This document shows, piece after piece, positions 12,920 through 64,000 of a DNA stretch of 64,000 nt. The translations under genes and the position numbers were made by a program. Source of the DNA: Candidatus Omnitrophota bacterium (GTDB lineage: Bacteria; Omnitrophota; Gorgyraeia; Gygaellales; Profunditerraquicolaceae); assembly GCA_041649115.1 (NCBI GenBank), contig JBAZNT010000001.1, positions 140,325 through 204,324 of the forward strand. Direction: 5' to 3'. Below the pieces are notes generated by a model. That model ran no database searches and was not told the origin of the DNA. It was given only the letters and a program-made list of their open reading frames with translations. Position 1 is the stretch's first letter. Every line of letters begins with the position of its first letter.

Positions 12920-12927
12920 ACTTTCAT

Positions 12928-13200: not shown

Positions 13201-13212
13201 GAGAATTTTTTT

Positions 13213-17993: not shown

Positions 17994-18071
17994 CGGGGCG
18001 TGGCTCAGTTTGGCTAGAGCGCAGCGTTCGGGACGCTGAGGTCGGTGGTTCAAGTCCACTCGCCCCGACCA
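17994..18071 (+). tRNA. tRNA-Pro (anticodon CGG), 3' CCA encoded
   Basis: Acceptor stem CGGGGCG/CGCCCCG, D arm GCTC...GAGC, anticodon stem CAGCG/CGCTG with loop TTCGGGA, T arm GGTGG-TTCAAGT-CCACT, discriminator A, then CCA. Confidence 0.93.
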
Positions 18072-33454: not shown

Positions 33455-33494
33455 GGGGCGCTTTAGGGCTGCCGGCCGGCATCCAGGGATTGGC

Positions 33495-33524
33495 TTGGAA
33501 AGTGCGCCTGGTTTGTGTTATAAT
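33495..33524 (+). promoter_or_regulatory. Possible internal promoter upstream of mraY
   Basis: TTGGAA (33495-33500), 18-nt spacer, TGT-TATAAT (extended -10, TATAAT at 33519-33524). It lies in the 78-nt murF-mraY gap. Confidence 0.4.
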
Positions 33525-33532
33525 AACTATTT

Positions 33533-34621: not shown

Positions 34622-34628
34622 GCCGTTT

Positions 34629-35900: not shown

Positions 35901-35903
35901 ATT

Positions 35904-50350: not shown

Positions 50351-51274
50351 ATGCAGGAATATACCGTCAAGGCAGATCTGGAAGAGACAGGCAGGCGCCT
50401 GGACGTATTTCTTTCCCGTTATTTCAAGGACATCAGGCTGGGGTACTCGCGGAATTTTATCCAGAGGCTGATCCGCGAGGGCGGCGTTACCTTAGGCGGC
50501 GTGTCGCTGAAACCCCACCATAAGGTGAAATCCGGAGAAGAATTTTGCATAACGGTAAACGAGAGAAAAGCCAGGGATTTAGAGCCACGCGAGATTGCGC
50601 TGGATGTGGTTTATGAGGATGATGAACTGGCGGTAGTAAACAAACCCTGCGGCATGGTAGTGCATCCGGGTGCGGGCAGGGAGCAGGATAGCCTGGCAAG
50701 CGGCCTCCTCTGCCGGTTTAAAAAATTATCCGATGTTAATCCCGAGAGGCCGGGCATTGTCCATCGGCTGGATAAGGATACTTCGGGGCTCTTGGTGGTA
50801 GCGAAGACCAACCCTGTTCATCTTGAGCTGGCGCGTCAGTTTGCAGAACACTCCATCAAGCGAAAATACCTTGCGCTGGTTGAAGGCAAGATGGAGTTTG
50901 ACGAGAACATAATCGAAGCGCCCATCGGCAGGCATCCTACCCAAAGAAAGAGCATGGCGGTCAACTTCAGCGCGGGCGCCCGGTATGCCAAGACCTATTA
51001 CCGCACCCTGGAACGCCTCGGGGGATTTAGTTTAGTAGAGTTGGAGCCTTTTACCGGCAGGACGCACCAGCTGCGGGTGCATTTGGCATATATCGGTCAC
51101 CCTGTCTTGGGAGACGCTAAATACGGCAAGCGCGGTAATTTTAGACGCCTGGCGCTTCATGCCGTATATTTAGGATTTACGCATCCGGTCAGCGGCAGAT
51201 CCCTGGAATTTAGATGCGATATGCCCGCCGAATTCAAAGAACATCTGCATAAAACAAAAACCCCCGTCCTATGA
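50351..51274 (+). CDS. rluD: RluA-family 23S rRNA pseudouridine synthase (RluD-like)
   Basis: N-terminal S4 domain, catalytic HRLDKDTSGLLVVAK, and GRTHQLRVH. Confidence 0.9.
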   Translation: MQEYTVKADLEETGRRLDVFLSRYFKDIRLGYSRNFIQRLIREGGVTLGGVSLKPHHKVKSGEEFCITVNERKARDLEPREIALDVVYEDDELAVVNKPCGMVVHPGAGREQDSLASGLLCRFKKLSDVNPERPGIVHRLDKDTSGLLVVAKTNPVHLELARQFAEHSIKRKYLALVEGKMEFDENIIEAPIGRHPTQRKSMAVNFSAGARYAKTYYRTLERLGGFSLVELEPFTGRTHQLRVHLAYIGHPVLGDAKYGKRGNFRRLALHAVYLGFTHPVSGRSLEFRCDMPAEFKEHLHKTKTPVL

Positions 51275-53049
51275 GCGGGTTTTCCGCAATGGACTCGATG
51301 ACATCTCCCGGGCAAGAGAAAAGGTGTTTTTTGGGAGGCGTAATGCAGAGCTTAGCGTTATTCTTCCGCAAGAACGCCGTCCTCGTGTTAGTGATTTCCT
51401 TTTTTGTCTTCGCCAACCTCATCTGGTGGCAACAGAATAAGTTTATTCAGGGGCCGGACGAAGGCGAACACTTGTATAAGAGCATCGAACTTTATGAATC
51501 CGGCGGTTATCTCCGTGAGTTCCTGCATCCTAAGGCCCACCATTCTTCTTACAACGGGCCTTTCTTTTACTCTACCGCCGGCATATTCTACCGCCTCTTT
51601 AACAGCAGCGCCTACCGGGTCTCCATCCTCAACATCCTTATTTATGCCGTCATTTTATTAATCGGCATAAGCAGGTTAGAGCGCTTATTCTTTAATACCG
51701 CCGGTATCCTTTCGCCGATGTTTTGCATGTTGATATATACCGGCGGCGTCTATTCAAGGTTCTTTAACCCCGACATAGCGGTGTGCGCCATACTGGTATG
51801 GTTTATGTATTTTCTTAAAAAACTGAATGATACCGTTAACCCGAAGTATTTCTTTATGTCCGCCCTGCTGATATTAATCGGAGGATATACCAAGGTAATG
51901 TTTTATTTATACGCTGCATTCCCCCTGTTATCTTATTTGCTTATGGCGTTTAGAAGGGGGGAAGTCAAAAAAATAACCTTTAACCTCATGTTAATCGCAT
52001 TCCTGCCTGTTCTCTTTTGGTTTATATATCCGGTTCCTTTTGAAAGAATAATCCTTGGGAGGCAGCTTAATTGTCAAGACATGCTGCAACAAGACAATCT
52101 TTCTGTTGCATATACCGCGGGAGGCTGCCTCGGTAACCTTAAGGAACTGGTTTTGATTATCGTCAATTCTCAATTCGGCGGGATAATGTTTTTATTCTTT
52201 ATTTTTAGTTTATTAGTTTTTATCTTTTCAACTGGCGAAAAAGAAGACAGATTCAGTATAATTGCGTGTTTTTTAGGTCCGCTCCTTGCATTTTTTATTT
52301 CAACATTTTCTTCATTGAGGATTAAATCTTTCGAAGACAGATATTTCATGCCCCTGGTCATTACCGAAGCTATAATAATGAGCTTTGCTTTGAATCGGTT
52401 TTTCCGCAGGAGGATTGTTCTTAGATTTGCGGCAGCGCTTTTTATCCTGTTTTTTTTCGTTCAATACCTGGGGTTTTCTTTTTCAAGAACCTGGATAGAT
52501 TTTTTTAACAGGCATACGGTTTTAAAAGGCGCGATAAATCTCTCGCATAAGCCGACGCTTTTCATTGCGCCTTCCCTGCCGATACGTTCCAACCCACTGG
52601 ATGGGATGTTGCAGATATTGAGGAGCGCTCAAGAGAATGGCGTGCCGGGGACCGCCTGTTTTATATACGACTTTGAGAAAGAGCCGTTTACCGATTTATT
52701 ATCCAAAAGGTTAGGATACTATACCCGCAGGAATCAGCATTTTATTTATACCGTCTGCGACGGATACCTTACCTGTACCGCCGGCTCTGTATCCGAAGCC
52801 AATTTCATCATAGTCAGCCGTTCCTACCTCAAAGAAAAAACAGAGGTCCTGTCCCCCGAATCCCTATTTTACAGGAAGGGCTGCCTTGATAACCCGGAGG
52901 CATACCAGCCCTTTCTGGAAGAGTTCGAGAGCTTCTTGAGGGAGGGGAGGTTTAGGCTTTACAGGCAGGTCGGTGCCTATGACCATATCCTGAATAGAAA
53001 AGAAGATTTTTTTATGTACCTCAAGGAAGAGATGCTGAAGCTGCTGTAA
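51271..53049 (+). CDS. Polytopic membrane protein, GT-C fold glycosyltransferase-like (ArnT/PMT family 39-like)
   Basis: At least 10 predicted TM segments. The first extracytoplasmic loop has a DE motif (QGPDEGEHLYKSIELYESGGY), as in ArnT/PMT enzymes, followed by a soluble C-terminal domain. The start may instead be the ATG at 51343 (MQSLALFF...). Confidence 0.6.
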   Translation: MSGFSAMDSMTSPGQEKRCFLGGVMQSLALFFRKNAVLVLVISFFVFANLIWWQQNKFIQGPDEGEHLYKSIELYESGGYLREFLHPKAHHSSYNGPFFYSTAGIFYRLFNSSAYRVSILNILIYAVILLIGISRLERLFFNTAGILSPMFCMLIYTGGVYSRFFNPDIAVCAILVWFMYFLKKLNDTVNPKYFFMSALLILIGGYTKVMFYLYAAFPLLSYLLMAFRRGEVKKITFNLMLIAFLPVLFWFIYPVPFERIILGRQLNCQDMLQQDNLSVAYTAGGCLGNLKELVLIIVNSQFGGIMFLFFIFSLLVFIFSTGEKEDRFSIIACFLGPLLAFFISTFSSLRIKSFEDRYFMPLVITEAIIMSFALNRFFRRRIVLRFAAALFILFFFVQYLGFSFSRTWIDFFNRHTVLKGAINLSHKPTLFIAPSLPIRSNPLDGMLQILRSAQENGVPGTACFIYDFEKEPFTDLLSKRLGYYTRRNQHFIYTVCDGYLTCTAGSVSEANFIIVSRSYLKEKTEVLSPESLFYRKGCLDNPEAYQPFLEEFESFLREGRFRLYRQVGAYDHILNRKEDFFMYLKEEMLKLL

Positions 53050-53117
53050 AATAAATAAAAAAGCATCTTCCTCCCTCTGCATTCCTGCCCTAAAGATCCC
53101 GTATACCCCGAATATTA

Positions 53118-53146
53118 TTGAAAAATATAAGTGTAACTGTTATAAT
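53118..53146 (+). promoter_or_regulatory. Near-consensus sigma70 promoter upstream of the SPASM radical SAM gene
   Basis: TTGAAA (53118-53123), 17-nt spacer, TATAAT (53141-53146). The 5' UTR carries 9-bp inverted repeats AGAAATAAA (53152-53160) and TTTATTTCT (53182-53190), which abut the RBS. Confidence 0.55.
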
Positions 53147-53204
53147 ATGTTAGAAATAAATAAAGACCCGCGAAGACCTGTTTTATTTCTAAAAGGAAGA
53201 TATT

Positions 53205-54191
53205 ATGAAGAGCGCCCCCTATATAAAATCATGTTTTGCCAATGACGGTTTGCGGAGGTTTTTAAATCTTGCACAGGCGTATTTGGTTTTTAAGACAAGG
53301 CCTCGATATGTGCGGGGTCAGCCTGTGATGGCTGTCCTGGAACCGACAAACCAATGCCCCTTAAAATGCGAAATGTGCGTGCGTCCTAAGCTGGGGTCTT
53401 TAAAGCTCGGGAGCATGAGTTATGACAATTTTGTCTGTTTGCTCGGTCAGTTTGATTACCTTGTCAGTCTCGCCTTAGTGGGGCTGGGAGAGCCTTTTTT
53501 GAATCAGGATTTGCCAAAAATGATTCACTATGCCAAGAGAGCCAGAAAAATTCCCTACATCTGGGTTTCTACAAACGGGATGGTTCTGGATAATATCGGC
53601 TACAAAGAGGTAAATTCCATGCCTGTTGAGGATATGCTTATTTCTTTTGACGCGGCATCCGCGGATACCTACGAAAAAATAAGAAAAGGCGCTTCCTTCA
53701 GCAGGCTTATAAAGAATATCGAAGGATTAATGGAGGTCAAGCGCAGCAGCGGAAAAGGGCCCAAGATAATCCTGGTTACCGTTGCCACAAATACCAATTC
53801 CGAGGAGCTTTTCGAAGTGGTCAAGGTAGCCGCTTCTCTCGGGGTGGATAAATTACGGATGATTACCGTAAACTCAGATTATCCGAATTCTCCCGGGATG
53901 GTCTTTAATGATCCCTCGAAGGAAGCCGGAAAACTGCAGGCCTTGGCGAGGCGTCTGCATTTGGCTTTTGAATATTCCAAGTTTGCCGAGTGTTTTGAGC
54001 CCTGGTTGCGTCCGTATATTACCTGGGATGGCTATCTAACGCCCTGCGCCTCCCGGCCTAACGCCGAGGAGATTAATTTTGGGAATGTCTTTGAGAAGCC
54101 GCTTGCCGAGATTTGGAACAGTAAGGATTTCCAGGCATTCAGGTCTTCCAGGCCTTCAATTTGCCGTCGCTGCCCACGCACATGGAAATAA
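53205..54191 (+). CDS. Radical SAM protein with a C-terminal SPASM/twitch-like Cys region
   Basis: Radical SAM motif EPTNQCPLKCEMC and GGEP-like VGLGEPFLN. C-terminal cysteines lie in AECFEPW...LTPCASRP...SICRRCPR. Confidence 0.75.
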   Translation: MKSAPYIKSCFANDGLRRFLNLAQAYLVFKTRPRYVRGQPVMAVLEPTNQCPLKCEMCVRPKLGSLKLGSMSYDNFVCLLGQFDYLVSLALVGLGEPFLNQDLPKMIHYAKRARKIPYIWVSTNGMVLDNIGYKEVNSMPVEDMLISFDAASADTYEKIRKGASFSRLIKNIEGLMEVKRSSGKGPKIILVTVATNTNSEELFEVVKVAASLGVDKLRMITVNSDYPNSPGMVFNDPSKEAGKLQALARRLHLAFEYSKFAECFEPWLRPYITWDGYLTPCASRPNAEEINFGNVFEKPLAEIWNSKDFQAFRSSRPSICRRCPRTWK

Positions 54192-54399
54192 AGAGATATC
54201 AGAAATGACAGGTTTTTTATCAATTCAGATTTAGGCGGCTCTCCCGTACCCGATCTTGGTTTTGCCTATGCGCTCTCTAGGGATACCGGTAGTCCTTAGG
54301 CGTCAGCTTAGCGTCAAGGGGGAAGCTTTATCTTTGGGATAGATTATTTGTGGATAGGGTAAGAAGTTGTTGGCCGGCCATTCAATATGAGGCTATGAT

Positions 54400-55137
54400 A
54401 TGTTGCGCAAGATAGAAGGTCTTTCCGTAATCGTCCCCGTTCGCGATGAAGGAGGGACCATCAGGTCGGTCGTTCAGGATTGCTTGGCGCAGCTTGATGC
54501 GCTTGCATCCCGATATGAAGTTATCGTAGTAGACGACCACTCTTCGGAAGACGTGGAATTTCTGCTTGATGGGTTACCTTGCAGGGTAGTGAAGAATGTG
54601 TCCCGGGCCGGCAAAGGTAATGCCATAAGGAGCGGATTGAAGGAATGCCGTTACGGCACGGTTGTTATGCTGGATGGGGATTATTCCCACAGGCCCGAAG
54701 ACCTGCCTGTCTTGGCAAAGGAGTTTGAAAAGGGGTTTGGGTTGGTTGTGGCTAGCAGGGCATTAGGGGGAAGCGATGAATATAGCCTGATGAGAAGCAC
54801 GGGGAATATGCTGGCCACGTCTATGTTCAACTTGCTCTTTGGAGTGCATCTTAGCGATGCGCTCAACGGTTTTAAGATCTTTGACAGGCTTATAGCGGAT
54901 ACCTTTGCCTATGTCTCAGAGGGTTTTGATATAGAAATCGAGCTCCTTGCAAATGCAAGGAACCTGGGGTTAAGCATCGGTCAAGTCCCTTCTCATGAGC
55001 GCAGGAGGTCGCAGGGCATAGCCAAGAGCATGCCGTTTGTCATGGTCTTTTCGGTACCTTACCGGATATTATACGAGCGAATGCGTTACGGTAAGAAAAA
55101 GAGAATTGACGGCCCGCAGGCGCCTTCTTCCAGATGA
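54400..55137 (+). CDS. Family 2 glycosyltransferase, polyprenyl-phosphate sugar synthase-like (Dpm1/Ppm1/ArnC-like)
   Basis: Contains SVIVPVRDEGGTI, VVDDHSSED, LDGDYSH (DxD) and VVASRALGGSDEY...SDALNGFKIF. 245 aa. Confidence 0.78.
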   Translation: MLRKIEGLSVIVPVRDEGGTIRSVVQDCLAQLDALASRYEVIVVDDHSSEDVEFLLDGLPCRVVKNVSRAGKGNAIRSGLKECRYGTVVMLDGDYSHRPEDLPVLAKEFEKGFGLVVASRALGGSDEYSLMRSTGNMLATSMFNLLFGVHLSDALNGFKIFDRLIADTFAYVSEGFDIEIELLANARNLGLSIGQVPSHERRRSQGIAKSMPFVMVFSVPYRILYERMRYGKKKRIDGPQAPSSR

Positions 55138-56666
55138 AAAAAAACACACTTATCGTTTTTTGTATTTTGTTGGTTTCTCTTAACGTCGGGCTTCAGGCAG
55201 GAAAATTTGCAGCAGGCTGGGAAAAGCTGGTTACGCGCTGCCCCGTGTTCTATGCAATAGAAGCAAAGAACATCGCTCGTTTTGGCCTTCTCGGGATAGA
55301 CGGCTCGACCATTTTTGCGACTGGAGCCTACGGCCTCAAGAGAAGATTTGACGTGCCGATGTGCAACCATCCTCTCCTGACTTCAGCGATATGCGCTTTT
55401 TTCTTCAGGGTATTCGGAGTGCATGTCTGGGTTACCCAGCTATTGGCGCTGCTATTTGGCATAGGTATTTCCTTGATGGCAATGCTTCTTGCATGGCGTA
55501 TGAGCGGGATGTGGTTATGCGCCTTACTGGCGGGGGCATTGGCGAGCCTTGTCCCGGCGGCATTATATTACAACCATATCTTGGACCGTTGGTGGCTGGA
55601 TATCTTTTGGTTTCTGGCTGTTATTATTCTTTATCGCAGGGTATCGGAAGACGGATTTTTAAATTTCAAGGAAAAGGCCTGGCTTTATTTTTTCACCCTC
55701 CTGGCATGTCTTAATGGATGGCGTCTTCTGGCGCTGCCGCCGCTTCTTATGCTTCATTCCGCCGTTAAGATAAAAGAGGTAAGCGCCGACCGTAAGAATG
55801 CGGGGGCCAGTTTCCTGAGAGAGTACGGTTTTCTTTTGGCGTTGATTACTGTCGCCCTGCTATGGTTCATGCAGCGGATGCACGCGATGAATCTCGCTGA
55901 TTATTTAAGACTCGCATACCTTAAGACGGAGCCCAAGCCGGCAGATATTACCATATGGCAGTGGGCGTGGAAGTATTTCCGTATTCAGACGGATTCTTAC
56001 ACGTCTGTTCTCTACGTTCTTATTCTGCCCGGGCTGGCAGCATTTTTTTTCAACAGGCGCGTTACGCCTTCGGACAAGACGCTGATGGCAATAATCATCA
56101 TTTGGGGCGTCCTCACGAGCGCGTTTCTGACAAAACACGCCTATTACATCTATAGCCTCCACAATGCCTTTTTTATCCCGGTAGTTCTCTCGAGCGCGTA
56201 CCTTCTGGCCAGGCTCATATACCTGATTCCCAAACGCTATCTAGTTTTTCGGTTCGTTTTTTCGGTTTTTTTCTTTGTTTTCTTCATTCTCTCGACACAG
56301 CATGTTGTTGCGAGATGGCCTTTTAAGCGCTTTCCGTTGCGCAGTTTCGAAAGCGAAATAAATCGCGTTACCCTGCCGGAGGATATTATTGCAACCAATT
56401 CTGACCTTACGGGGCAGCATGATTATTCAACGGATATAAGAAATCCCGTCAATCTCCATAACATGTTTTACATGGACAGGGAGATTGAAATTTTCAAATC
56501 CAAAGGCGATTTTCTGAAAAAGGGCGGTAGGTATAAATATTTTGTTTTTGAAAAGAGCGAATCCGGCGTATCTGGCGAGGAAGAGGATCTTTTTGAATAC
56601 CTGAAGTTCAACTCGGCAGACATGAAAGAAGAAGGCCGTTTTTACATATTCAGGCTGAAGGAATGA
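55134..56666 (+). CDS. Polytopic membrane protein, possible second GT-C-type glycosyltransferase
   Basis: About 11 hydrophobic segments followed by a ~140-aa soluble tail. ATGA overlap with the GT2 gene. No clear catalytic motif recognised, so the family call is tentative. Confidence 0.4.
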   Translation: MKKNTLIVFCILLVSLNVGLQAGKFAAGWEKLVTRCPVFYAIEAKNIARFGLLGIDGSTIFATGAYGLKRRFDVPMCNHPLLTSAICAFFFRVFGVHVWVTQLLALLFGIGISLMAMLLAWRMSGMWLCALLAGALASLVPAALYYNHILDRWWLDIFWFLAVIILYRRVSEDGFLNFKEKAWLYFFTLLACLNGWRLLALPPLLMLHSAVKIKEVSADRKNAGASFLREYGFLLALITVALLWFMQRMHAMNLADYLRLAYLKTEPKPADITIWQWAWKYFRIQTDSYTSVLYVLILPGLAAFFFNRRVTPSDKTLMAIIIIWGVLTSAFLTKHAYYIYSLHNAFFIPVVLSSAYLLARLIYLIPKRYLVFRFVFSVFFFVFFILSTQHVVARWPFKRFPLRSFESEINRVTLPEDIIATNSDLTGQHDYSTDIRNPVNLHNMFYMDREIEIFKSKGDFLKKGGRYKYFVFEKSESGVSGEEEDLFEYLKFNSADMKEEGRFYIFRLKE

Positions 56667-56759
56667 TTCGGCGTCAGCCGCGCCGGGTCCAACATCGCTG
56701 CATTTCGTTGTCCCGGCGAAGGATGCAATCATGATTCGCATGGTTGCGGAGGTTCCCAT

Positions 56760-58268
56760 ATGCGCGTAGTTCTGATAAACCCAAATCTTGACGGCTCACC
56801 CATCCCCAATATCGGACTTGCCTACGTTATCTCTTCCGTAGAACGCGATCATCAGGTGCGGCTCTTAGATATGGTTTTCCACACCGGGGATTACCGCCGT
56901 TATCTTGCCGCCAGTTTTAAGGAATTCAGGCCCGAGGTAATTGGGTTTTCAGTAAATAGCTTTACCTTCCACTATGCCCTTAAGATAGCCTCTTTCATAC
57001 GCGCAGAATATCCTGCAATCCCGCTGGTCTACGGAGGCATACATACGAGCCTTCTTCCGGAAGAAACAATCCGGAACCCGCTGGTTGATGCCATCTGCAT
57101 AGGGGAGGGGGAAGATTCATTCCGCGAATATCTCCGGAAGCTTGAGCGTGGCGAGCGCCCCCGGGATGTGGCAGGCATCTGGTATAAGGACGATACCGGT
57201 GCGGTCGTCAGGAACATCTTGCGTCCTTTTAGGGAGGATCTCGATTCGCTTCCTTTTCCTAACTGGGCACACTGGGACATGGACAGATATTTGAAGACGA
57301 ACCTCTATTTTGTAGGCGGGATAGGATACATGTTTTCCCGCGGCTGCCCGTATACGTGCAGTTTTTGTTCTAATCCCGCCATGCAACGGGCAATCCCCGG
57401 AAGGTTCTATCGCCATAGGAGCCCAGCTAACATTATAGAGGAGATAAAATTAAACAGAGACAGGTATGCCTCGCGCGGGTTCAGGAATGTCGCGTTTGGG
57501 GATGCAACCTTCGGTCTTAATAAGAGATTCCTGGAGGAATTCTGCGAACTCTACATGGGAGAACGGCTGCATCTTGATTTTCCGTGGGTGTGCCAGACAA
57601 GGGTAGATGTAATCACCGAGGAATGGGCGCGCCTTGTCGCCCGCGCAGGATGTTGTATGGTAACGCTGGGGATCGAGTCGGCCGACGATTACATACGCAC
57701 CAAGGTATTCAGGAAAACTATTTCTGCCGAGGCGATTGCAAATGCGATAGATAGATTGAAGAGAAATGATATAATGTATGCCATCAATATTATCATCGGT
57801 TGCCCTGATGAGACCAGGGAGAGCATAAAGAGGGTCTTGACCTTGTTGCGGAAGGCCAAGCCCGTCAATACCTACTTTTCTTTTTACCAGCCTTTGCCGA
57901 AGACCGAGCTCGGCGAGGCAACGAGAGAGTATATCGTAGTCAGCGAGGATAAGCTTACGAAGCCCTGGAATACCCCGCGCATATCCGTAAAATATATAAA
58001 GATTTCTGAATTAAAAAGGCTTATGCTGAGGATAAGGATAGCGAAGGTATTGAAGTTTTTTATTTCCGGGATAAGATTGAAAGGGGCGCGTTTTATCGTG
58101 ACAGTCATCAAGTACCTCTTTTCTATAGGCGGGTACCGGACGATGTCGCTGCGCAATCCCTATATGGAAGTAGACCTCGAGCAGAGGACCTTCTATCACT
58201 ACCTGCTTAATAACTGGAGGCGTTCTTACCTCAAGAAGATCTCGCAAGAAAAGGCGGAAGGTCGATGA
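56760..58268 (+). CDS. B12-binding-domain radical SAM protein (class B)
   Basis: N-terminal Rossmann-like B12 domain (VVLINPN...IGLAYV...VIGFSV...PLVYGGIHTS...ICIGEGE). Radical SAM motif FSRGCPYTCSFCSN. Confidence 0.8.
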   Translation: MRVVLINPNLDGSPIPNIGLAYVISSVERDHQVRLLDMVFHTGDYRRYLAASFKEFRPEVIGFSVNSFTFHYALKIASFIRAEYPAIPLVYGGIHTSLLPEETIRNPLVDAICIGEGEDSFREYLRKLERGERPRDVAGIWYKDDTGAVVRNILRPFREDLDSLPFPNWAHWDMDRYLKTNLYFVGGIGYMFSRGCPYTCSFCSNPAMQRAIPGRFYRHRSPANIIEEIKLNRDRYASRGFRNVAFGDATFGLNKRFLEEFCELYMGERLHLDFPWVCQTRVDVITEEWARLVARAGCCMVTLGIESADDYIRTKVFRKTISAEAIANAIDRLKRNDIMYAINIIIGCPDETRESIKRVLTLLRKAKPVNTYFSFYQPLPKTELGEATREYIVVSEDKLTKPWNTPRISVKYIKISELKRLMLRIRIAKVLKFFISGIRLKGARFIVTVIKYLFSIGGYRTMSLRNPYMEVDLEQRTFYHYLLNNWRRSYLKKISQEKAEGR

Positions 58269-59716
58269 AAACACTATTTATTGCGCCGTCAATAAAACAT
58301 AGCGCTTCCGCTGATTTTCCCGACGGCATACCTCGCAGCATCAGCAGGAATTTCGGTATTTATCCCTGGATCGGAATCTGTTCGATCGCGAGCTACCTGA
58401 GGCAGCATAATTTCGAATCCGACATTCTGGACATTGACGCCGAAGGGCTTTCCTTGAGGGGGGTTATCAGGAGGATACGGGAGAGCAATCCCCAGCTTAT
58501 CGGGATTTCCACTATTTCGTTTACATTTCTTTACGCGTTGAGGCTTGCCAGGGAGATCAAAAAACATTTCGATTGCCCTATCGTTATGGGGGGGCCGCAT
58601 GTCTCGATATATCCGAGAGAGGTGATGACGCACGGGTGTATCGATGTGGGCGTAATCGGGGAGGGAGAGCAGACATTCCTGGAGCTTGCGACTGCCTTTG
58701 CCGGCAATAGCGGCAACGAGGATGCGATACATAAGGAATTTTCAAGGATAGACGGCATTGCCTTCAGGTCAAACGCAAAAACGGTCGTCACGGCTCCGAG
58801 AAAACTATTCGATAATATCGATGAACTTCCGTTCCCGGCGATAGAGAAACTCAAGATACAGCGTTACTACGGATGCAATATAGGCAGGCCATATATAACG
58901 ATGGTAACGGCGCGGGGATGCCCTTTCTCCTGCAGCTTTTGTTCCAAGCAGCACTGGGGGGACAGCTTTAGGTTTCTCAGCGCAAGGAGGGTTGTTGATG
59001 AAATAGAATATTACATTAAACACCTCGGGATAAGGGCGGTTGACTTCTATGATGATACCTTTACCATCCCGCGTTCCAGGATACTTGAAATAACGGATTT
59101 AGTAAAAAAGCGCAATCTTAAATTTGATTTCGGCATGATGACGCGCGTCGACTGCGTGGACGCCGAATTGATTACCGCCTTAAAGGAAGCCGGCTGCAGG
59201 TCCCTGGCGTATGGGGTTGAATTCGGCGATGCCGATATCCAAAAAAAGGTAGATAAGGAATTTTCGTTTGCAGAGATAGACGGGGCCTTCCGGCTAGCCA
59301 GGCAGGCAGGTCTGGCAACGGTAGGATTTTTTATGGTAGGCCACCCCGAGGAGAGCGAGGATGCCGTAGGCAATACCATCAGGCTCATTAAACAGCTCGA
59401 TGTCGGCTATGTCAAAGCCAATATCCTCATACCATATCCGGGTTCGAAGCTATATCTTCAGCAGTTAAGATCCGGGAATCTAAAGGTAGATTTTTGGTCC
59501 GAATTAACCAGGGGGAAGATATTGCCTCTGGCCTCTTTGATAAAAACCAAGATAAGCATCCCCCGGTTAATAGAATTAAGAAATTATATCAACCGCCTTC
59601 CGTATTTGAAATTCAAGAGAAACAGCATTTCAAAGATACAGAAGATTAAATTATTCCAGGATATAAAACGGGCGTTTTCTATCTTAACCGGCTCTTACCT
59701 TGACAGGAGGGTATAG
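58265..59716 (+). CDS. B12-binding-domain radical SAM protein (class B), paralog of the preceding gene
   Basis: Contains IGICSIASYL...LIGISTISF...PIVMGGPHVS...GVIGEGE and radical SAM TARGCPFSCSFCSK. ATGA overlap with the upstream paralog. Confidence 0.8.
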   Translation: MKTLFIAPSIKHSASADFPDGIPRSISRNFGIYPWIGICSIASYLRQHNFESDILDIDAEGLSLRGVIRRIRESNPQLIGISTISFTFLYALRLAREIKKHFDCPIVMGGPHVSIYPREVMTHGCIDVGVIGEGEQTFLELATAFAGNSGNEDAIHKEFSRIDGIAFRSNAKTVVTAPRKLFDNIDELPFPAIEKLKIQRYYGCNIGRPYITMVTARGCPFSCSFCSKQHWGDSFRFLSARRVVDEIEYYIKHLGIRAVDFYDDTFTIPRSRILEITDLVKKRNLKFDFGMMTRVDCVDAELITALKEAGCRSLAYGVEFGDADIQKKVDKEFSFAEIDGAFRLARQAGLATVGFFMVGHPEESEDAVGNTIRLIKQLDVGYVKANILIPYPGSKLYLQQLRSGNLKVDFWSELTRGKILPLASLIKTKISIPRLIELRNYINRLPYLKFKRNSISKIQKIKLFQDIKRAFSILTGSYLDRRV

Positions 59717-59720
59717 GGGC

Positions 59721-60962: not shown

Positions 60963-61869
60963 GCTGTATGCTTGGATAGACGGACGGGTATCCTCCCAGG
61001 AGGTGGCGTTATTCAACCTTCGGCTTGGCGCTTTCCATTATGGCCTGGCGGCATTTGAGGGCATTCTGGCTGTGAGGGCGAGAGGCAAAGGAAGAAACGG
61101 CGTAGCTTTATTCAGGGCACCGGAACACATCGCCAGGCTTTTAGAATCGGCGCAAGCATTGCATCTGGACGTTCGCTATTCGCCGCAAGATATTCTTGAG
61201 GCCATAAGGGAAATCGTCATCCGCAACGGCTCACGCACCTGCTACGTACGCCCGTTGCTGTTTGGAGGCAACGATTATCTGCATTTAGCCCGTAAAAATA
61301 TGCCGGCGAGTCTGGCGGTGATGGTCAGGCCGTTTAACTTTTTGGCCTTTTCGCTTAAGATGAAAATTCCAGTTTCCCTGACGACCTTCGGAGGCAGGGA
61401 CAATCCTTCCGCCGGGGCACTCGGTTCTTTAAAGGTCTCGGGCAGATACGCGATGAATATGCTGGCAAAAAGATATGCCCTTGACCGGGGCTGTGCCGAT
61501 GCGGTTCTTTTTGATTCTTCAGGCAGCGTTGCGGAGGCAACGTCGTCAAACATATTTATAATATGCAAAAACAAAATATCTACCCCTGCGCCCGGGAAGA
61601 TTATAGATGGCATTACCAGAAAGACAGTGATATCCATTCTGGAGCAGATGGGCCTCAAGGTTGCCGTGAGGGTTATTGGCAGGGAGGAGCTGCTTGAGAG
61701 CGATGCGATATTTCTGACAGGAACGGCCAGCGGCATAGTCTGCGCTAGAAACATAGAGGGGCATAAGCTTAATGCCGCTGCCTTTGTTCCGGCGAAATTG
61801 CGCAGCAGATATATAGACATTATCAGCGGTCGCGATGACAAGAATAGCAGTTACCTTAATTATTGTTAA
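60940..61869 (+). CDS. Class IV (branched-chain amino acid / D-amino acid) aminotransferase family protein
   Basis: Contains FHYGLAAFEG, YVRPLLFGG, Lys region GSLKVSGRYAMNMLAKRYALDRGCADAVLFD, SVAEATSSNIF, DGITRKTVI and FLTGTASGI. The start is 60940 or 60952. Confidence 0.8.
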   Translation: MVLKMTDKLYAWIDGRVSSQEVALFNLRLGAFHYGLAAFEGILAVRARGKGRNGVALFRAPEHIARLLESAQALHLDVRYSPQDILEAIREIVIRNGSRTCYVRPLLFGGNDYLHLARKNMPASLAVMVRPFNFLAFSLKMKIPVSLTTFGGRDNPSAGALGSLKVSGRYAMNMLAKRYALDRGCADAVLFDSSGSVAEATSSNIFIICKNKISTPAPGKIIDGITRKTVISILEQMGLKVAVRVIGREELLESDAIFLTGTASGIVCARNIEGHKLNAAAFVPAKLRSRYIDIISGRDDKNSSYLNYC

Positions 61870-61881
61870 ACGCATAATACG

Positions 61882-63333
61882 ATGAGGGGCCCGTTTTTAG
61901 CAGAGCTTTCGGGAGGCGATGTCGCGCCTGGTTTATCAAGGCCGTTAAGAAAAACGGAAGAGATAGGCCGCACTTTAAGCGTTTGTCCGCGGTGCCTACG
62001 GACGGTTGAGGCCGCTGTCGTTAATAACAACGGTACCGTTATGATTGAAAAAATATGCCCGCGGCACGGCATATTTAAAGCGGTGCACATCTGGGATTCC
62101 GAACGTGTTTACCGGGGATTATCGGAGATTTTTGGGGGGCAGCAGGCGCGTGCAGCCAACGGCCTAGTATTGAACGTTACCAATAACTGCAACCTTCATT
62201 GTTCTTTTTGTTTTGCCAGGGCAAATGAAAGAACGGCGAATTCCTTGTCGCGCGACGCCATCGAGAAAATACTCGCCAGGCACCGGGGAGGGATCGTGTA
62301 CTTTTCGGGAGGGGAGCCGACGGTGCATCGGGGGTTGCTTGCGGATATGCGTCTCGTCAAGGAGCGCGGCCGTTCGGTAGGACTTTTCAGCAACGGCAAA
62401 AAACTTCAGCAGGTCAGTTATGTCAATCAGCTCCGCGAGGCAGGGGTAGATTTTGTAATCCTGCAGTTCGATTCCCTACGCGACGAGCATTATATATTCA
62501 TGCGGGGGGAAGCGTTGCTCCAGCAGAAGATGCGGGCCTTGGACAACCTGAGGTCTGCCCGTATACCCGTATACCTGTTTGTGATGCTTTTGGAAGGAAG
62601 AAATATAACAGAAATCGCTTCTTTGATACGGTTTGTTTCCGCTAAAAGCGATTTTATTAAAATAATCAATTTTAACCCGGTTTGGGATATTGGCAGGGTC
62701 GGCGCGCATCAAAAGATAACCACCTCGAAGATACTGAGCGCTATTGAGTCGCAGACAGGATTGACGACCGGAGATTTCCTGGATTCCACCGCGTTTTCCT
62801 TTTATTTATTTGAGGCCCTTGGGAAATTAAGCAAGAAAAGCGTGAATCTGCAGCCGGCCTGCGAACTACGCTGCTACGTGATGTTCAGGCGCGGCAGGCC
62901 AGTCCCGCTTACGAAAATAGTAGATATCAAAAGGCTTAATTTTTATTTGATGAAAATCGTCAAGGGCAGCGGAGCTGAGCGGATTTCGCGTTTGTTGCTG
63001 CTGCCGGTTTTTTTTCTGGAGGCCTTTATCGCCAACGGGAATTTCCGGTTTCTCTCGCGGCTTATTCTTAAGAACCTTGTAAGAAATTTACTCGGTATTT
63101 CATTGTTGCGCCTTTCCCCCTTTGCGAGCATAATCGTAGGAACATTCCAGACTGCGGAGAACCTGGATTTCAATTCAGTTAAGACCTGCAACCTTTATTC
63201 TGATTACCCGCAGGGAGAATTTATTTTTTCAGCTTGCATCAGGCAGATTTTAATGGATGGGATTGACGGGGCGGAGGGGGTTGATATGCAGGACCTCCTG
63301 TCTTCTTACAGAAAATCCGTCTTTGGTCCTTGA
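61882..63333 (+). CDS. Radical SAM protein, COG1964 / Tes (MJ0619)-like, with an intact N-terminal CPxC...CPxHG knuckle
   Basis: N-terminal CPRCLRTVEAAVVNNNGTVMIEKICPRHG, radical SAM NVTNNCNLHCSFCF, FSGGEPT, and C-terminal FQTAENLDFNSVKTCNLYSDYPQGEFIFSAC. The family call rests on remembered motif patterns only. Confidence 0.6.
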   Translation: MRGPFLAELSGGDVAPGLSRPLRKTEEIGRTLSVCPRCLRTVEAAVVNNNGTVMIEKICPRHGIFKAVHIWDSERVYRGLSEIFGGQQARAANGLVLNVTNNCNLHCSFCFARANERTANSLSRDAIEKILARHRGGIVYFSGGEPTVHRGLLADMRLVKERGRSVGLFSNGKKLQQVSYVNQLREAGVDFVILQFDSLRDEHYIFMRGEALLQQKMRALDNLRSARIPVYLFVMLLEGRNITEIASLIRFVSAKSDFIKIINFNPVWDIGRVGAHQKITTSKILSAIESQTGLTTGDFLDSTAFSFYLFEALGKLSKKSVNLQPACELRCYVMFRRGRPVPLTKIVDIKRLNFYLMKIVKGSGAERISRLLLLPVFFLEAFIANGNFRFLSRLILKNLVRNLLGISLLRLSPFASIIVGTFQTAENLDFNSVKTCNLYSDYPQGEFIFSACIRQILMDGIDGAEGVDMQDLLSSYRKSVFGP

Positions 63334-63410
63334 TGCTGATAAGGCGGTTTAATGGCCGTTAGAGTCAAAATGATGCCTTTTTAACGTGTTTCATCATACG
63401 GGGATATCCG

Positions 63411-64000
63411 ATGCCTGGAGAGCAAAGATATAGTCTTACGCAGCTGTTGAGGGTTAAAGACTGGCTGCATATCTTAGGTATTACTCTTCTTGGGATGCTG
63501 TATGTTTCCAGGGAAATGCCCTCCGGGATGTTTCCGTTATGGGCGTTGATTGTTGCTTCGCTGTACCTAGCCCACGGTTATTCCATGAATACCTGTCTTG
63601 ATTTGCGCTACGGCGGCATTATATCCGCAGAATATTTTTACAGGGGGCTGGCCTTTTCTTATTGCCTGTTTTTATTGAATTGCCTCATCGCCTACCATCT
63701 CTCGCTTTATATTTTAGGCATTGTGATTATCGGCAGCCTGGCGTGCCTGGCTTATTCTGCCAGGCCCCTTAGGTTGAAAAGGTTCATCGCGTCCAATCTT
63801 GCGCTTAATTCTTTTGGTTTTTCCATGCTTTTCCTTTTAGGGGTTGTTGCGGCATCCGGCAGGATAGGGCCGGCATCGTTTATCGCCACCGCATTTTTCT
63901 TTCTTATTTTTATCCCGTTGCAGCTCGTGCACCACATTGCGCATACGGAGGAAGACAGGGGCCAGCGGATATCGGCTTTACATATAAGATACGGCATGAA
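63411..64000 (+). CDS. UbiA-family prenyltransferase-like membrane protein (3' end outside the window; not in the supplied ORF track)
   Basis: I translated it by hand from the ATG at 63411; the frame is open to base 64000: MPGEQRYSLTQLLRVKDWLHILGITLLG...AYSARPLRLKRFIASNL...HHIAHTEEDRGQRISAL. The YSxxPxRLKR and ExxD-x-G motifs are typical of UbiA enzymes. The first Asp-rich motif is atypical (NTCLDLRY). Confidence 0.6.
   Translation, partial: MPGEQRYSLTQLLRVKDWLHILGITLLGMLYVSREMPSGMFPLWALIVASLYLAHGYSMNTCLDLRYGGIISAEYFYRGLAFSYCLFLLNCLIAYHLSLYILGIVIIGSLACLAYSARPLRLKRFIASNLALNSFGFSMLFLLGVVAASGRIGPASFIATAFFFLIFIPLQLVHHIAHTEEDRGQRISALHIRYGM

Follow-up and report, generated by a model that had tools for sequence, protein, structure and literature searches.

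Organization of the gene cluster

The window analysed here is a 64,000-nucleotide stretch from a Candidatus Omnitrophota MAG. A preliminary description of this DNA had placed housekeeping genes in the first 51 kb, and PNPase, FtsK, RibBA, LigA, the dcw cluster, IleS, LspA, Lgt and RluD are indeed found there. From 51271 to 64000 follow ten ORFs, all in the same direction, whose predicted domains were checked with ORF calls and Pfam (Table 1); their existing annotation is generic only. The co-directional arrangement and the assigned domains agree with the earlier account, as do the ATGA overlaps at 55134 and 58265, the intergenic gaps of 12-208 nt, a ribosome-binding site embedded in the end of the preceding gene (AGGAGG, 59705-59710, 10 nt 5' of TTG 59721) and five of five CxxxCxxC strings in the translations. 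The first GT-C gene also overlaps rluD by ATGA at 51271, and Met at 51343, where the similarity to its paralog begins, may be its true start. The island had looked AT-richer by eye, and the drop in GC is genuine but modest (47.2% vs 51.1% upstream; GC3 55.5% vs 60.4%, Mann-Whitney p about 2e-5).

The island runs on past 64000. In the contig sequence beyond the window, the cluster continues with the rest of the UbiA gene and, 4 nt downstream, with the start of an eleventh gene, a second GT-C gene with 87% DNA identity to the first. The cluster is operon-like and contains at least 11 genes over about 13.5 kb. The promoter-like site in Table 1 matches 11 of 12 consensus positions and is a candidate only, because such sites in the region do not exceed the number expected by chance.

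Table 1. Genes and sites of the cluster within the window
Feature	Coordinates	Strand	Basis
GT-C-type (PMT_2-like) polytopic glycosyltransferase, copy 1	51271..53049	+	Pfam PMT_2 35.3 bits, cut-off 26.1
Promoter-like site (candidate)	53118..53146	+	TTGAAA, 17 nt spacer, TG, TATAAT; in 155-nt gap 5' of SPASM gene
Radical SAM with short SPASM/twitch-like C-terminus	53205..54191	+	Pfam Radical_SAM + SPASM
GT2 polyprenyl-phosphate-sugar synthase-like glycosyltransferase (AglJ/DPM1/ArnC-like)	54400..55137	+	Pfam Glycos_transf_2 79.8 bits
Very divergent PMT_2/GT-C-like polytopic membrane protein	55134..56666	+	No direct Pfam match; relatives match PMT_2
Cobalamin-binding (class B) radical SAM a	56760..58268	+	Pfam B12-binding 66 bits + Radical_SAM 77 bits
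Cobalamin-binding (class B) radical SAM b	58265..59716	+	Pfam B12-binding 81 bits + Radical_SAM 80 bits
Short Tes-like radical SAM paralog, 413 aa	59700/59721-60962 (59721 as start)	+	Radical_SAM; best PDB match 7TOL, 80 bits
BCAT-derived class IV aminotransferase (AT4)	60940/60952-61869 (60952 as start)	+	Pfam Aminotran_4 143 bits
Tes/GDGT-MAS-like radical SAM, 483 aa	61882..63333	+	Zn_ribbon_HMPTM + Radical_SAM; rubredoxin-like site, RS cluster, C-terminal cluster
UbiA-superfamily prenyltransferase	63411..64000 (cut by window end)	+	Pfam UbiA 56 bits; full length 280 aa

Tes-like radical SAM enzymes

The 483-aa enzyme resembles archaeal Tes/GDGT-MAS (MJ0619, PDB 7TOL, NF045702) in its overall architecture, in its CX3CX2C radical SAM cluster and in its other metal sites. 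Its subfamily profile matched 7TOL with 245 bits over residues 21-502, and its AF2 model (pLDDT 87.9) aligned with 7TOL over the full length with a TM of 0.77, while the next PDB matches covered the radical SAM core only (TM 0.37 or less). The rubredoxin-like motif, C35-X2-C38-X20-C59-X2-H62, has a spacing identical to that of GDGT-MAS (C9X2C12X20C33X2H36). Three residues invariant in the subfamily, C327, C436 and C452, align with three cysteines of the GDGT-MAS C-terminal domain. The published ligands of [4Fe-4S]C in that enzyme are Met439 and three cysteines given without residue numbers, and we take the aligned cysteines to be these ligands. The [4Fe-4S] cluster of this domain carries the substrate-sulfur intermediate in GDGT-MAS, an enzyme that couples lipid tails and has hydrophobic pockets for lipid.

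However, the 483-aa enzyme is devoid of the [4Fe-4S]N cluster, its whole motif CPYDCGLCPNH being missing, and the position of the labile Met439 ligand is Gly in the subfamily. On the Tes model (NF045702) it scored 179.6 bits vs a cut-off of 450; members of the subfamily gave 180-218, acidobacterial "Tes homologs" 316-330 and canonical Tes 625-709. With the N-terminal cluster missing and a score so far below the cut-off, the 483-aa enzyme is not Tes proper. The protein, called COG1964/Tes-like in the earlier account, is a full-length Tes relative with the catalytic C-cluster cysteines, but of the four metal sites of Tes it has lost one.

In the short paralog, the rubredoxin domain is a vestige without cysteines, and the RS cluster and a C-terminal cysteine triad equivalent to that of the 483-aa enzyme are kept; C75, C79, C82, C292, C386 and C400 are invariant in its family (n = 17). 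Unlike archaeal Tes, the Tes-like subfamily occurs in bacteria, always near UbiA-like and B12 radical SAM genes, and its gene is often duplicated to give this shorter form without a metal-binding rubredoxin.

A Tes relative accompanied by SPASM-type and B12 radical SAM enzymes is also found, according to the accessible text of Zeng 2022 and Garcia 2024, in the Tes-homolog clusters of Acidobacteria and Planctomycetes, for which membrane-spanning products (brGDGT/brGMGT) are there predicted, not proven. Those homologs, in contrast, are nearer to Tes (316-330 bits) and about 600-650 aa long, and their clusters, as far as the same accessible text describes them, contain Gms, which is an extended homolog of AhbD carrying a COG4001 domain, and neither a UbiA-type gene nor a class IV aminotransferase. 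In the accessible part of a preprint on bacterial Tes homologs, Omnitrophota are placed among the phyla encoding mainly Mss.

UbiA-like prenyltransferase and class IV aminotransferase

In structure, the UbiA-like model came closest to archaeal DGGGPS (6M31, E 8e-8, TM 0.74), with a small lead over other UbiA structures (TM 0.74 vs 0.73). The protein also shares with DGGGPS (6M31/7BPU) a size of about 280 aa and the N-x3-D of the first motif, but the identity is 18% only, the NCBIfam DGGGPS model gave 20 bits vs a cut-off of 296, the second DxxxD is replaced and no GGGPS partner was seen nearby. In bacterial members of the family, this second motif has become H-x3-H-x3-D/E (H-x3-H-x3-D in the present protein). 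The loss of the canonical second Asp-rich motif means that the use of a prenyl diphosphate is not assured. The top sequence matches in NCBIfam were chlorophyll synthase (27 bits) and homogentisate phytyltransferase (23 bits), all far under cut-off.

It had alternatively been proposed that this UbiA acts like a decaprenyl-phosphate phosphoribosyltransferase. This is less supported, since no model of that name is among the NCBIfam matches listed at E <= 1, and PRTase structures rank only 15th-16th against the model (TM 0.59-0.61).

The aminotransferase is of fold type IV and keeps the BCAT catalytic Lys and the Y-x-R carboxylate site; its best PDB matches are all BCATs (150 bits). It differs from IlvE by a score below the equivalog cut-off (219 bits vs 279) and by altered "EGxGEN" and "TAAEV" motifs, a feature of the cluster-linked subfamily. 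The Arg of "FEGxR", which in E. coli BCAT helps to bind the side-chain carboxylate of glutamate, is Leu in the source enzyme; all 14 cluster-linked sequences having that stretch, and 5 further database homologs, show Leu, Val or Ser there. The loss of this Arg, kept by canonical BCATs, indicates that the aminotransferase is not a spare IlvE.

B12 and SPASM radical SAM enzymes, and glycosyltransferases

All NCBIfam equivalog scores of the cluster proteins lie far under the cut-offs, and none of the proteins was placed in a well-characterised unrelated family; this check had been proposed in the preliminary description, and its outcome favours the lipid reading given there. For B12 radical SAM a, the best match was BchE (156 bits vs 481). 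Orthologs of B12 radical SAM b with 50% identity adjoin AT4 and UbiA in Omnitrophota MAGs. The SPASM enzyme (328 aa) matched best the W-cofactor maturase (115.6 bits vs 380), with AhbD at 42 bits only; its SPASM domain has, by eye, only four cysteines (C263, C282, C319 and C322), and so probably binds one auxiliary cluster. Homologs of this enzyme are present in two related loci, L003 and L047.

The GT2 protein matched the NCBIfam AglJ (81 bits) and ArnC-type (44 bits) models, both under cut-off, and a "GPDEGEH" loop motif was seen by eye in GT-C copy 1. What had been called a second polytopic membrane protein is polytopic, and can be refined to a very divergent PMT_2/GT-C relative: only 18 relatives were found among 1.84 billion representatives, and 10 of the 10 scanned match PMT_2, 9 of them above the gathering score. 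A broken-up homolog lies after the SPASM gene in L003. The source cluster has one GT2 and three GT-C-like genes, the third just beyond the window.

A DPM1/AglJ/ArnC-like GT2 beside a PMT_2-type GT-C, a pairing that recurs in related loci, is reminiscent of Gtr/Arn-type periplasmic glycosylation. In contrast to these systems, the window is without GtrA, SMR or MATE flippase, there are three GT-C paralogs, and the genes are set within a radical SAM and UbiA cluster instead of an O-antigen locus.

Conservation across genomes

The same Tes-like subfamily was found at 32 non-redundant loci in Omnitrophota, Planctomycetia, Elusimicrobia and one Altiarchaeales MAG; none of the cluster-bearing organisms is cultured. 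Linkage was counted on the 16 of these 32 loci whose flanks reach 4 kb or more on each side: all 16 carry a UbiA-like gene, and all 16 carry one or more B12 radical SAM genes. AT4 never occurred without the short Tes-like paralog, and up to 7 B12 radical SAM paralogs were seen per locus. Starting reciprocally from a UbiA homolog recovered the short Tes-like gene, AT4, B12 radical SAM genes and PMT_2. The check on neighbourhood proposed in the preliminary description gave strong conservation across phyla, again in favour of its reading, with the gene order shuffled between loci. Only 2 of about 32 loci, L040 and L047, have FPP/GGPP-type short-chain prenyl-diphosphate synthases, which there adjoin the core.

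Among 132 non-core ORFs of the related loci, the commonest accessory families were GT2 (13 ORFs) and PMT_2 (10 ORFs). Glycan-assembly neighbours (Wzy_C, GT4, GT1 and pyruvyltransferase, PS_pyruv_trans) were frequent, and some loci were flanked by WecA-like, carbamoyltransferase and heptosyltransferase genes. The 25 commonest accessory Pfam families included no fatty-acid or ether-lipid genes and none of GGGPS, G1PDH, GGR and CarS, which could lie elsewhere in the genomes. At a distant UbiA locus without radical SAM genes, an overlapping polytopic protein directly follows UbiA.

Discussion

For the operon-like cluster, the most likely function is the synthesis and decoration of an unusual membrane lipid or glycolipid anchor built on isoprenoids, a reading to which we give about an even chance. 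An unusual tailored lipid had been suggested at the outset, and this is partly supported: the full-length Tes match with its C-cluster cysteines, the DGGGPS-like UbiA, the prenyl synthases in two loci and the prevalence of GT2 and PMT_2 argue for it. The failed Tes threshold, the missing metal site, the lack of archaeal- or ether-lipid genes among the 25 commonest families and the glycan neighbours argue against it.

The domain identities, metal-ligand conservation, fold matches and gene linkage described above suggest a route in which the substrates, the order of the steps and the product are all putative. The UbiA-type enzyme, with its DGGGP-synthase-like fold and altered metal and diphosphate site, would attach a short C15-C20 prenyl chain to an acceptor. 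The two Tes-derived enzymes (483 aa and 413 aa) would abstract hydrogen from unactivated terminal methyls and, as in archaeal Tes, would hold the first radical on the C-terminal [4Fe-4S] sulfide while the second radical is made, forging C(sp3)-C(sp3) bonds that could yield a macrocycle, a tail-to-tail dimer or a cross-link. The short paralog and the BCAT-derived aminotransferase may act on a 2-oxo or amino acid with a hydrophobic, probably isopropyl-ended side chain, and the two cobalamin radical SAM enzymes and the SPASM enzyme may add methyls, rings or further links. The GT2 would load a sugar on polyprenyl phosphate, which the three GT-C proteins would transfer on the membrane's outer face.

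Rather unlikely, in our estimate, is a glycan-centred role, in which the target of modification is a surface polysaccharide or the lipid-linked donor for it. The UbiA-like protein would then place a non-prenyl group on polyprenyl phosphate in the manner of the mycobacterial PRTase; methylation, epimerisation or cross-linking of the sugar would fall to the radical SAM enzymes, and delivery to a glycan beyond the membrane to the GT-C proteins. This explanation keeps its place because Wzy_C, GT4 and pyruvyltransferase (PS_pyruv_trans) neighbours are frequent; together with GT2, PMT_2 and GT1 they dominate the accessory genes, and the WecA-like, carbamoyltransferase and heptosyltransferase genes of some loci fit it too. 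So do the GT-C gene immediately 3' of UbiA in the source cluster, the UbiA and overlapping polytopic protein of the distant radical-SAM-free locus, and the altered prenyl-diphosphate-binding second motif. Yet the phosphoribosyltransferase comparison is poor, by NCBIfam names as by structure (0.59-0.61 vs 0.74 for DGGGPS), the window is without the phosphatase, epimerase or flippase of known three-component systems, the one structure related to the 483-aa enzyme over its whole length belongs to a lipid-tail coupler with hydrophobic pockets, and two loci carry short-chain prenyl-diphosphate synthases.

A prenylated small molecule, resembling a quinone, chromanol, pigment or cofactor or else belonging to the secondary metabolites, is an improbable product; it would be built anaerobically from an amino-acid-derived core, with radical SAM enzymes replacing oxygen-dependent steps. 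A transaminase does belong to the conserved core, and COG1964 was formerly assigned to pterin methylation, the origin of the Pfam HMPTM zinc-ribbon name; the chlorophyll synthase and homogentisate phytyltransferase matches of UbiA point the same way, but are all far under cut-off. Moreover, the accessory-family tally shows no linked ring-forming or aromatic-precursor genes, the Tes-like fold match includes the lipid-pocket domain, and the persistent association of GT2 with GT-C suits a membrane-surface product better.

Published proposals assign brGDGTs to bacterial Tes homologs, on the grounds that iso-acyl and phytanyl termini are identical. By analogy, the BCAT-like protein could supply iso-branched primers, the Tes-like enzymes could couple iso-fatty-acyl tails into diabolic-acid-type chains, and the B12 radical SAM enzymes could add methyl branches, giving a fatty-acid-based, branched-GDGT-like membrane-spanning lipid. 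The BCAT descent of the aminotransferase and the up to 7 B12 paralogs per locus, which would fit the "overly branched" GDGTs reported from anoxic waters, are in line with this scheme. We hold it to be quite improbable: strict linkage is seen with a UbiA-type enzyme, prenyl-diphosphate synthases occur in two loci, genes for fatty-acid synthesis or of the PlsA/Ger or ElbD type are absent from the commonest accessory families, the Arg of canonical BCATs is gone from the BCAT-like protein, and the Tes-like subfamily is farther from Tes than the acidobacterial candidates. Finally, a RiPP maturation cluster is barely credible: enzymes of the SPASM and class B radical SAM types often serve as RiPP maturases, and ApyD is among the top NCBIfam matches of the B12 enzymes (137-177 bits vs a cut-off of 750), but the gaps hold no plausible precursor ORF, in agreement with the preliminary description, the small ORFs beside the L003 SPASM gene are fragments of a GT-C-like gene, and neither the window domain scan nor the accessory families showed a protease, a transporter or a RiPP recognition element.

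The isoprenoid-based lipid or glycolipid anchor is thus the product that we favour. The cluster, which brings together Tes relatives, a prenyltransferase, B12 radical SAM enzymes and sugar-transfer enzymes in a bacterium, is undescribed as a system.

Organisation and extent of the island

We examined the ten plus-strand genes that the preliminary description had placed at 51271-64000, and all of them were present as claimed, together with the five CxxxCxxC strings in the translated proteins and the ATGA overlaps at 55134 and 58265. The ribosome-binding site described inside a preceding gene is an AGGAGG at 59705-59710, within the end of the upstream gene. The first 51 kb do hold housekeeping genes, and the island is more AT-rich, as had been judged by eye, with a GC content of 47.2% against 51.1% upstream and a GC3 of 55.5% against 60.4%, a significant but modest difference. 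Recent horizontal transfer was considered and rejected, the drop in GC being only about 4 points, mobility genes being absent and the first gene abutting rluD; the mild compositional bias is the only support found for it. An exact-sequence look-up placed the window on a 221-kb contig of the source MAG, whose proteins (MFA4983873-84) carry only generic names ('radical SAM protein', 'aminotransferase class IV', 'UbiA family prenyltransferase'), and no island protein reached the cut-off of any NCBIfam equivalog.

Coordinates of the features of the window and the matches on which they are based
Feature	Position	Strand	Basis
FMN riboswitch	12926-13201		80.5 bits
ribBA	13257-14471		
tRNA gene	17994-18068		Rfam, 61.5 bits
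dcw cell-division/peptidoglycan cluster	28946-43276		
PMT_2 (GT-C)	51271-53049	+	Pfam, 35.3 bits vs gathering score 26.1
Promoter-like site, extended -10	53118-53146		11/12 positions
Radical_SAM + SPASM	53205-54191	+	Pfam
GT2	54400-55137	+	Pfam
B12-binding + Radical_SAM	56760-58268	+	Pfam
B12-binding + Radical_SAM	58265-59716	+	Pfam
Radical_SAM (413-aa short Tes-like paralog)	59721-60962	+	Pfam
Aminotran_4	60952-61869	+	Pfam
Zn_ribbon_HMPTM + Radical_SAM (483-aa enzyme)	61882-63333	+	Pfam
UbiA	63411 to window end	+	Pfam

The island was also found at 100% identity in two other public assemblies, on a 13-kb ENA contig and an 11.6-kb Logan contig. One of the identical assemblies runs 745 nt beyond the window, which gives a full UbiA-like protein of 280 aa, followed after 4 nt by a second GT-C gene with DNA 87% identical to that of the first. 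This identity spans at least 345 nt (window 51343-51689 against 12403-12747 of the island contig L001, just beyond the window end). GT-C paralogs thus bracket the island, which is longer than the window: the genes originally assigned to 51271-64000 stand, but the end at 64000 does not, since the second GT-C gene lies beyond it. The 13-kb ENA contig begins and ends within the two GT-C genes, so this repeat is a probable cause of breaks in short-read assemblies.

The 510-aa 'second polytopic protein' had 18 relatives among 1.84 billion representatives. PMT_2 was matched by all ten relatives scanned, in nine cases above the gathering score, and for this reason we include it among the GT-C-like proteins as their third and very divergent member. 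The GT-C family assignment rests on Pfam and transitive matches rather than on direct homology to the PMT_2 family recurrent in related loci, to which the GT-C proteins of the window gave no BLAST or HMM match and hhalign probabilities of 33% and 16%. At one related locus (L003:17502-19773) the homolog of the 510-aa protein is broken into three ORFs (55, 61 and 522 aa), either because the gene is frameshifted or decaying or through an error in sequencing.

Promoter and terminator scans returned as many sites as shuffled sequence. The one near-consensus promoter-like site of note, in the gap before the SPASM gene, suggests that the genes from 53205 on form their own transcription unit, while transcription of the first GT-C gene may continue through from rluD.

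Elsewhere in the window, the FMN riboswitch upstream of ribBA spans 276 nt against the 138 positions of the model and therefore contains a large insertion, and the single tRNA gene lies among the housekeeping genes. The dcw cluster looks complete, from an FtsI-type PBP and MraY through to FtsA, so the source Omnitrophota MAG encodes a peptidoglycan wall.

Tes-like radical SAM enzymes

On the Tes equivalog model NF045702 (cut-off 450), the 483-aa enzyme scored 179.6 and the short paralog 93. Two other members of the 483-aa subfamily, P0018 and P0006, scored 218 and 183, in comparison with 625-709 for canonical Tes and 316-330 for the acidobacterial 'Tes homologs', which lie above the 180-218 of the subfamily. 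On these scores neither the 483-aa enzyme nor its short paralog would qualify as Tes. The subfamily is sharply bounded: about 40 proteins sharing 35-52% identity gave 276-540 bits, and the next matches, at 157 bits or less, are the canonical Tes proteins. TrsS, which ties with Tes as top NCBIfam match, was rejected as an identity, its neighbourhood being of selenoprotein/organometallic type, unlike that of the island; as canonical Tes proteins also score 374-422 on the TrsS model, this similarity is generic to COG1964.

The subfamily profile aligns to residues 21-502 of 7TOL, the structure of archaeal GDGT-MAS/Tes (MJ0619), with 245 bits. The AlphaFold (AF2) model of the 483-aa enzyme (pLDDT 87.9) matched 7TOL/7TOM with a TM of 0.77 over about 487 columns, the predicted full-length fold including the helical lipid-pocket domain, while all its other PDB matches covered the radical SAM core only (TM ≤0.37). 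The best PDB match of the short paralog is also 7TOL.

Four metal sites are reported for Tes. The radical SAM CX3CX2C is kept in both proteins, as C103, C107 and C110, invariant in 26 sequences of the 483-aa subfamily, and as C75, C79 and C82, invariant in 17 members of the short paralog family. The rubredoxin-like iron site CX2CX20CX2H is kept in the 483-aa subfamily, with C35, C38, C59 and H62 invariant and spaced as in C9X2C12X20C33X2H36 of Tes; in the short paralog this region is alignable but without Cys, a vestige of the site. The [4Fe-4S]N cluster (C73, C77, C80 and a His) is absent from the 483-aa subfamily: the CPYDCGLCPNH stretch of 7TOL corresponds to a gap in its profile, and the region from H62 to C103 has no further conserved Cys.

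The [4Fe-4S]C cluster of Tes is held, according to the published work, by three Cys and Met439, and carries the substrate-sulfur intermediate. In the 483-aa subfamily C327, C436 and C452 are invariant and correspond in the alignment to Cys from the HQHC, RCC and PFC stretches in the C-terminal domain of 7TOL, and the position of the labile Met439 aligns with the near-invariant G420. Since the papers do not number the Cys, we infer C327, C436 and C452 as putative [4Fe-4S]C ligands from the alignment. Three C-terminal Cys are invariant in the short paralog family as well. The retention of the radical SAM motif together with these three Cys leads to the prediction that both enzymes keep the C(sp3)-C(sp3) coupling apparatus.

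UbiA-like prenyltransferase

The 196 aa of the UbiA-like protein inside the window passed the PF01040 gathering score (56.3 bits vs 34.2), and its model (pLDDT 85.6) presents an all-helical fold matching UbiA-family structures. The protein is rare, with eight relatives in a word-indexed search of 5.8 billion clusters, and distant from every named subfamily, the top NCBIfam score being 27 bits; on NF009521, the DGGGP synthase equivalog (cut-off 296), it scored 20.4 bits. The best structural match of the model is archaeal DGGGP synthase (6M31, 7BPU; E 8e-8, TM 0.74), and AfUbiA gave E 2e-5 and TM 0.73. The decaprenyl-phosphate phosphoribosyltransferase put forward earlier as an alternative is less well supported: the mycobacterial enzyme (8J8J, 8J8K) ranks 15th-16th (E 4e-3 to 7e-3, TM 0.59-0.61), no partner phosphatase, epimerase or flippase accompanies the gene in the window, and among the NCBIfam matches listed at E ≤ 1 there is no model of that name.

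The canonical pair of Asp-rich motifs for Mg-diphosphate binding (NxxxDxxxD and DxxxD) is altered. N60 and D64 of the first motif are retained and its third Asp is variable; the second reads H174-x3-H178-x3-D182, with H174 invariant in an eight-sequence alignment. The closer, bacterial relatives have H-x3-H-x3-D/E, and an Altiarchaeales homolog has DxxxD. Prenyl-diphosphate synthases adjoin the core in two related loci and score best as FPP/GGPP/IdsA-type short-chain enzymes, which speaks for a C15-C20 donor and against a long polyprenol.

A distant UbiA relative with 30% identity (L116:10001-12237, a locus from Logan SRR12983605) stands without radical SAM neighbours and is followed by an overlapping gene for a polytopic protein of 476 aa, whose first loop has a GT-C-like 'LDES'. 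The arrangement is a hint that UbiA was paired with GT-C before it became associated with radical SAM genes.

B12, SPASM and glycosyltransferase proteins

Both B12 enzymes have the class B architecture (PF02310, 66 and 81 bits; PF04055, 77 and 80 bits), and neither reached the HpnR, HpnJ, BchE or ladderane-associated TIGR04072 equivalogs, with best scores of 85-177 bits against cut-offs of 360-750. Gms is defined as an extended AhbD homolog with a COG4001 domain, whereas the SPASM protein of the island has 328 aa and scores 41.8 bits on AhbD (cut-off 500); set apart by size and by this score, it is probably not Gms. Compared with three-component glycosylation of the Gtr/Arn type, GT2 and GT-C are present in the window but a flippase was not found within it. 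At the related locus L041 a small DMT_6 transporter adjoins GT2.

Conservation of the neighbourhood

The preliminary description had proposed comparing the gene neighbourhood in related genomes; through neighbourhood look-ups and genome and metagenome scans we recovered 32 non-redundant loci. The genome-derived ones belong to Omnitrophota, Planctomycetia, Elusimicrobia and one Altiarchaeales MAG, and the taxonomic spread rests on these, the metagenome contigs carrying no taxonomic label. Where at least 4 kb were available on both sides, a UbiA-like gene was present in 16/16 loci and at least one B12 radical SAM gene likewise in 16/16, with up to seven of the latter in one locus. Gene order and strand vary among the related loci, which argues that the linkage is functional rather than inherited. 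A reciprocal search starting from a UbiA homolog led back to the short paralog, the aminotransferase, three B12 enzymes and a PMT_2 gene.

By Pfam family, the 132 non-core ORFs of the related loci belong most often to GT2 (13), PMT_2 (10), class I methyltransferases (8), GT1/GT4 (6), Wzy_C (5), further radical SAM proteins (5) and polyprenyl synthetases (2). GGGPS, G1P dehydrogenase, GGR, CarS, fatty-acid synthesis and plasmalogen-type genes do not appear among the 25 commonest accessory families.

Several loci show arrangements of their own. A Planctomycetia MAG (GCA_964415355.1, contig CAYPYS010000003.1; L005/L012) has over more than 20 kb a run of 15 consecutive co-directional radical SAM genes, comprising seven B12-type, three Tes-like, one MiaB-like, two SPASM-type and two others. 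The UbiA-like gene stands at the head of this run, a GT2 gene and one unassigned gene are the only interruptions, and an aminotransferase is lacking. In the closest non-identical relative (L040, JGI 3300049914; 52% identity), one 1828-aa ORF (L040:1-3739) fuses a SPASM radical SAM module to two B12 radical SAM modules, and a farnesyl/geranylgeranyl-diphosphate synthase-like gene immediately precedes the aminotransferase. The Candidatus Altiarchaeales locus (L017, on the 536-kb contig WJMO01000006.1) holds, in addition to a B12 radical SAM gene and the UbiA-like gene with the canonical second motif, four paralogs of the 483-aa subfamily (167-256 bits), and represents either the ancestral state or an inter-domain transfer. 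In an Omnitrophota MAG, a YbhB/PEBP-family (phosphatidylethanolamine-binding-like) protein is encoded between the UbiA-like and GT2 genes (L013/L041:15920-16438). One related contig carries, a few genes from the cluster, an ORF of 74 aa that matches Pfam MamI (magnetosome protein; L042:17166-17390).

Aminotransferase

The class IV aminotransferase scored 219 on the IlvE equivalog against a cut-off of 279. Its best PDB matches are all branched-chain aminotransferases (BCATs), and the catalytic Lys and Y-x-R are conserved. The Arg of the BCAT 'FEGxR' stretch, which in the E. coli enzyme helps bind the glutamate side-chain carboxylate, has given way to Leu in this protein. Across the 14 cluster-linked sequences covering the stretch, and in five more relatives from the databases, the residue is Leu, Val or Ser; of the canonical BCATs in the search, the nearest retains Arg. 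The loss of this Arg suggests an altered substrate pair or a more hydrophobic pocket entrance.

The aminotransferase gene occurs in 12 loci, always together with the short Tes-like paralog. Iso-acyl and phytanyl chains and leucine-type side chains have a common isopropyl terminus, the part that Tes attacks. Since the terminus is shared and the short paralog is obligately paired with a BCAT-derived enzyme, one of the coupling partners may, speculatively, be the terminus of an amino acid or 2-oxo acid.

Discussion

The strict association of Tes-like, UbiA-like and B12 radical SAM enzymes, the archaeal lipid enzymes as the two closest structural relatives, and the short-chain prenyl-diphosphate synthases of two loci together with the recurrent GT2/GT-C pair fit best with a pathway for a glycosylated, radical-SAM-tailored isoprenoid lipid or lipoglycan anchor, a reading to which we give about even credence. 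In such a pathway the UbiA-like enzyme would transfer a prenyl group, the Tes-like enzymes would couple tails or macrocyclise, the B12 and SPASM enzymes would methylate or form rings, and glycosylation would take place at the outer face via a polyprenyl-P-sugar.

A cluster centred on glycan assembly is, in our view, unlikely, even with the many glycan-assembly genes among the neighbours, the altered diphosphate motif of UbiA and its position next to a GT-C gene, all of which speak for it; if true, it would represent a new route to the modification of surface glycans by radical chemistry. Little speaks for a prenylated small molecule, which we consider quite improbable. A fatty-acid-based, brGDGT-like lipid would agree with published ideas on bacterial Tes homologs, but the obligate UbiA partner does not fit, and we regard it as very improbable. 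Maturation of a RiPP is scarcely credible, little speaking for it and no precursor ORF having been found in the island gaps, in line with the preliminary description, and the small ORFs of L003 are fragments of its GT-C-like gene.

Extending the isoprenoid glycolipid reading, we put forward a wider proposal that, taken jointly, is improbable. Omnitrophota, Planctomycetota and Elusimicrobiota would make archaeal-style macrocyclic or membrane-spanning isoprenoid lipids by means of a stripped-down Tes lineage and a DGGGPS-like UbiA with a His motif. B12 radical SAM enzymes would methylate these lipids at several positions or cyclise them, and sugars would be added outside the membrane. In the present sub-clade, an isopropyl terminus of amino-acid origin would be joined to the lipid tail by the short Tes paralog together with its BCAT-derived partner. 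If true, the orphan tetraether-type biomarkers of anoxic settings would gain a bacterial source, and the 'lipid divide' would be crossed in a new way.

The literature reports bacterial Tes homologs, and the clusters they form with Gms/Grs homologs in Acidobacteria and Planctomycetes, as untested predictions. Such studies used cut-offs such as a BLASTP E <1e-50 against MA_1486. The 483-aa subfamily matched MJ0619 with E = 2e-43 among the far smaller set of PDB sequences, so the subfamily may not have been counted earlier. A preprint on bacterial Tes homologs groups Omnitrophota with phyla mainly encoding Mss. In a 2026 review of lipid radical SAM enzymes the words 'prenyltransferase' and 'aminotransferase' are absent throughout, and in full-text literature searches we found no account of a cluster of Tes-like, UbiA, B12 radical SAM and class IV aminotransferase genes, in line with the original remark that the author knew of no described pathway of this composition. 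On this basis the cluster would be a variant among the Tes-type radical SAM lipid-tailoring systems.

To enzymology the cluster offers natural variants: a Tes-like enzyme predicted to work with neither the N-terminal cluster nor the Met ligand, a Tes-like paralog without rubredoxin iron, a UbiA with His replacing Asp in the diphosphate-binding motif and a BCAT without the dicarboxylate-binding Arg. Uncertainty over which organisms produce the unusual tetraether and branched membrane-spanning lipids of anoxic waters and sediments restricts the value of these lipids as climate and environment proxies, and the extent of archaeal-type lipid synthesis by bacteria bears on the origin of the 'lipid divide'. 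On both matters the cluster is a concrete, compact and testable candidate of about 11 genes, conserved in at least three bacterial phyla with almost no cultured members, anchored by enzymes that have the archaeal tetraether synthase and DGGGP synthase as their only close structural relatives.
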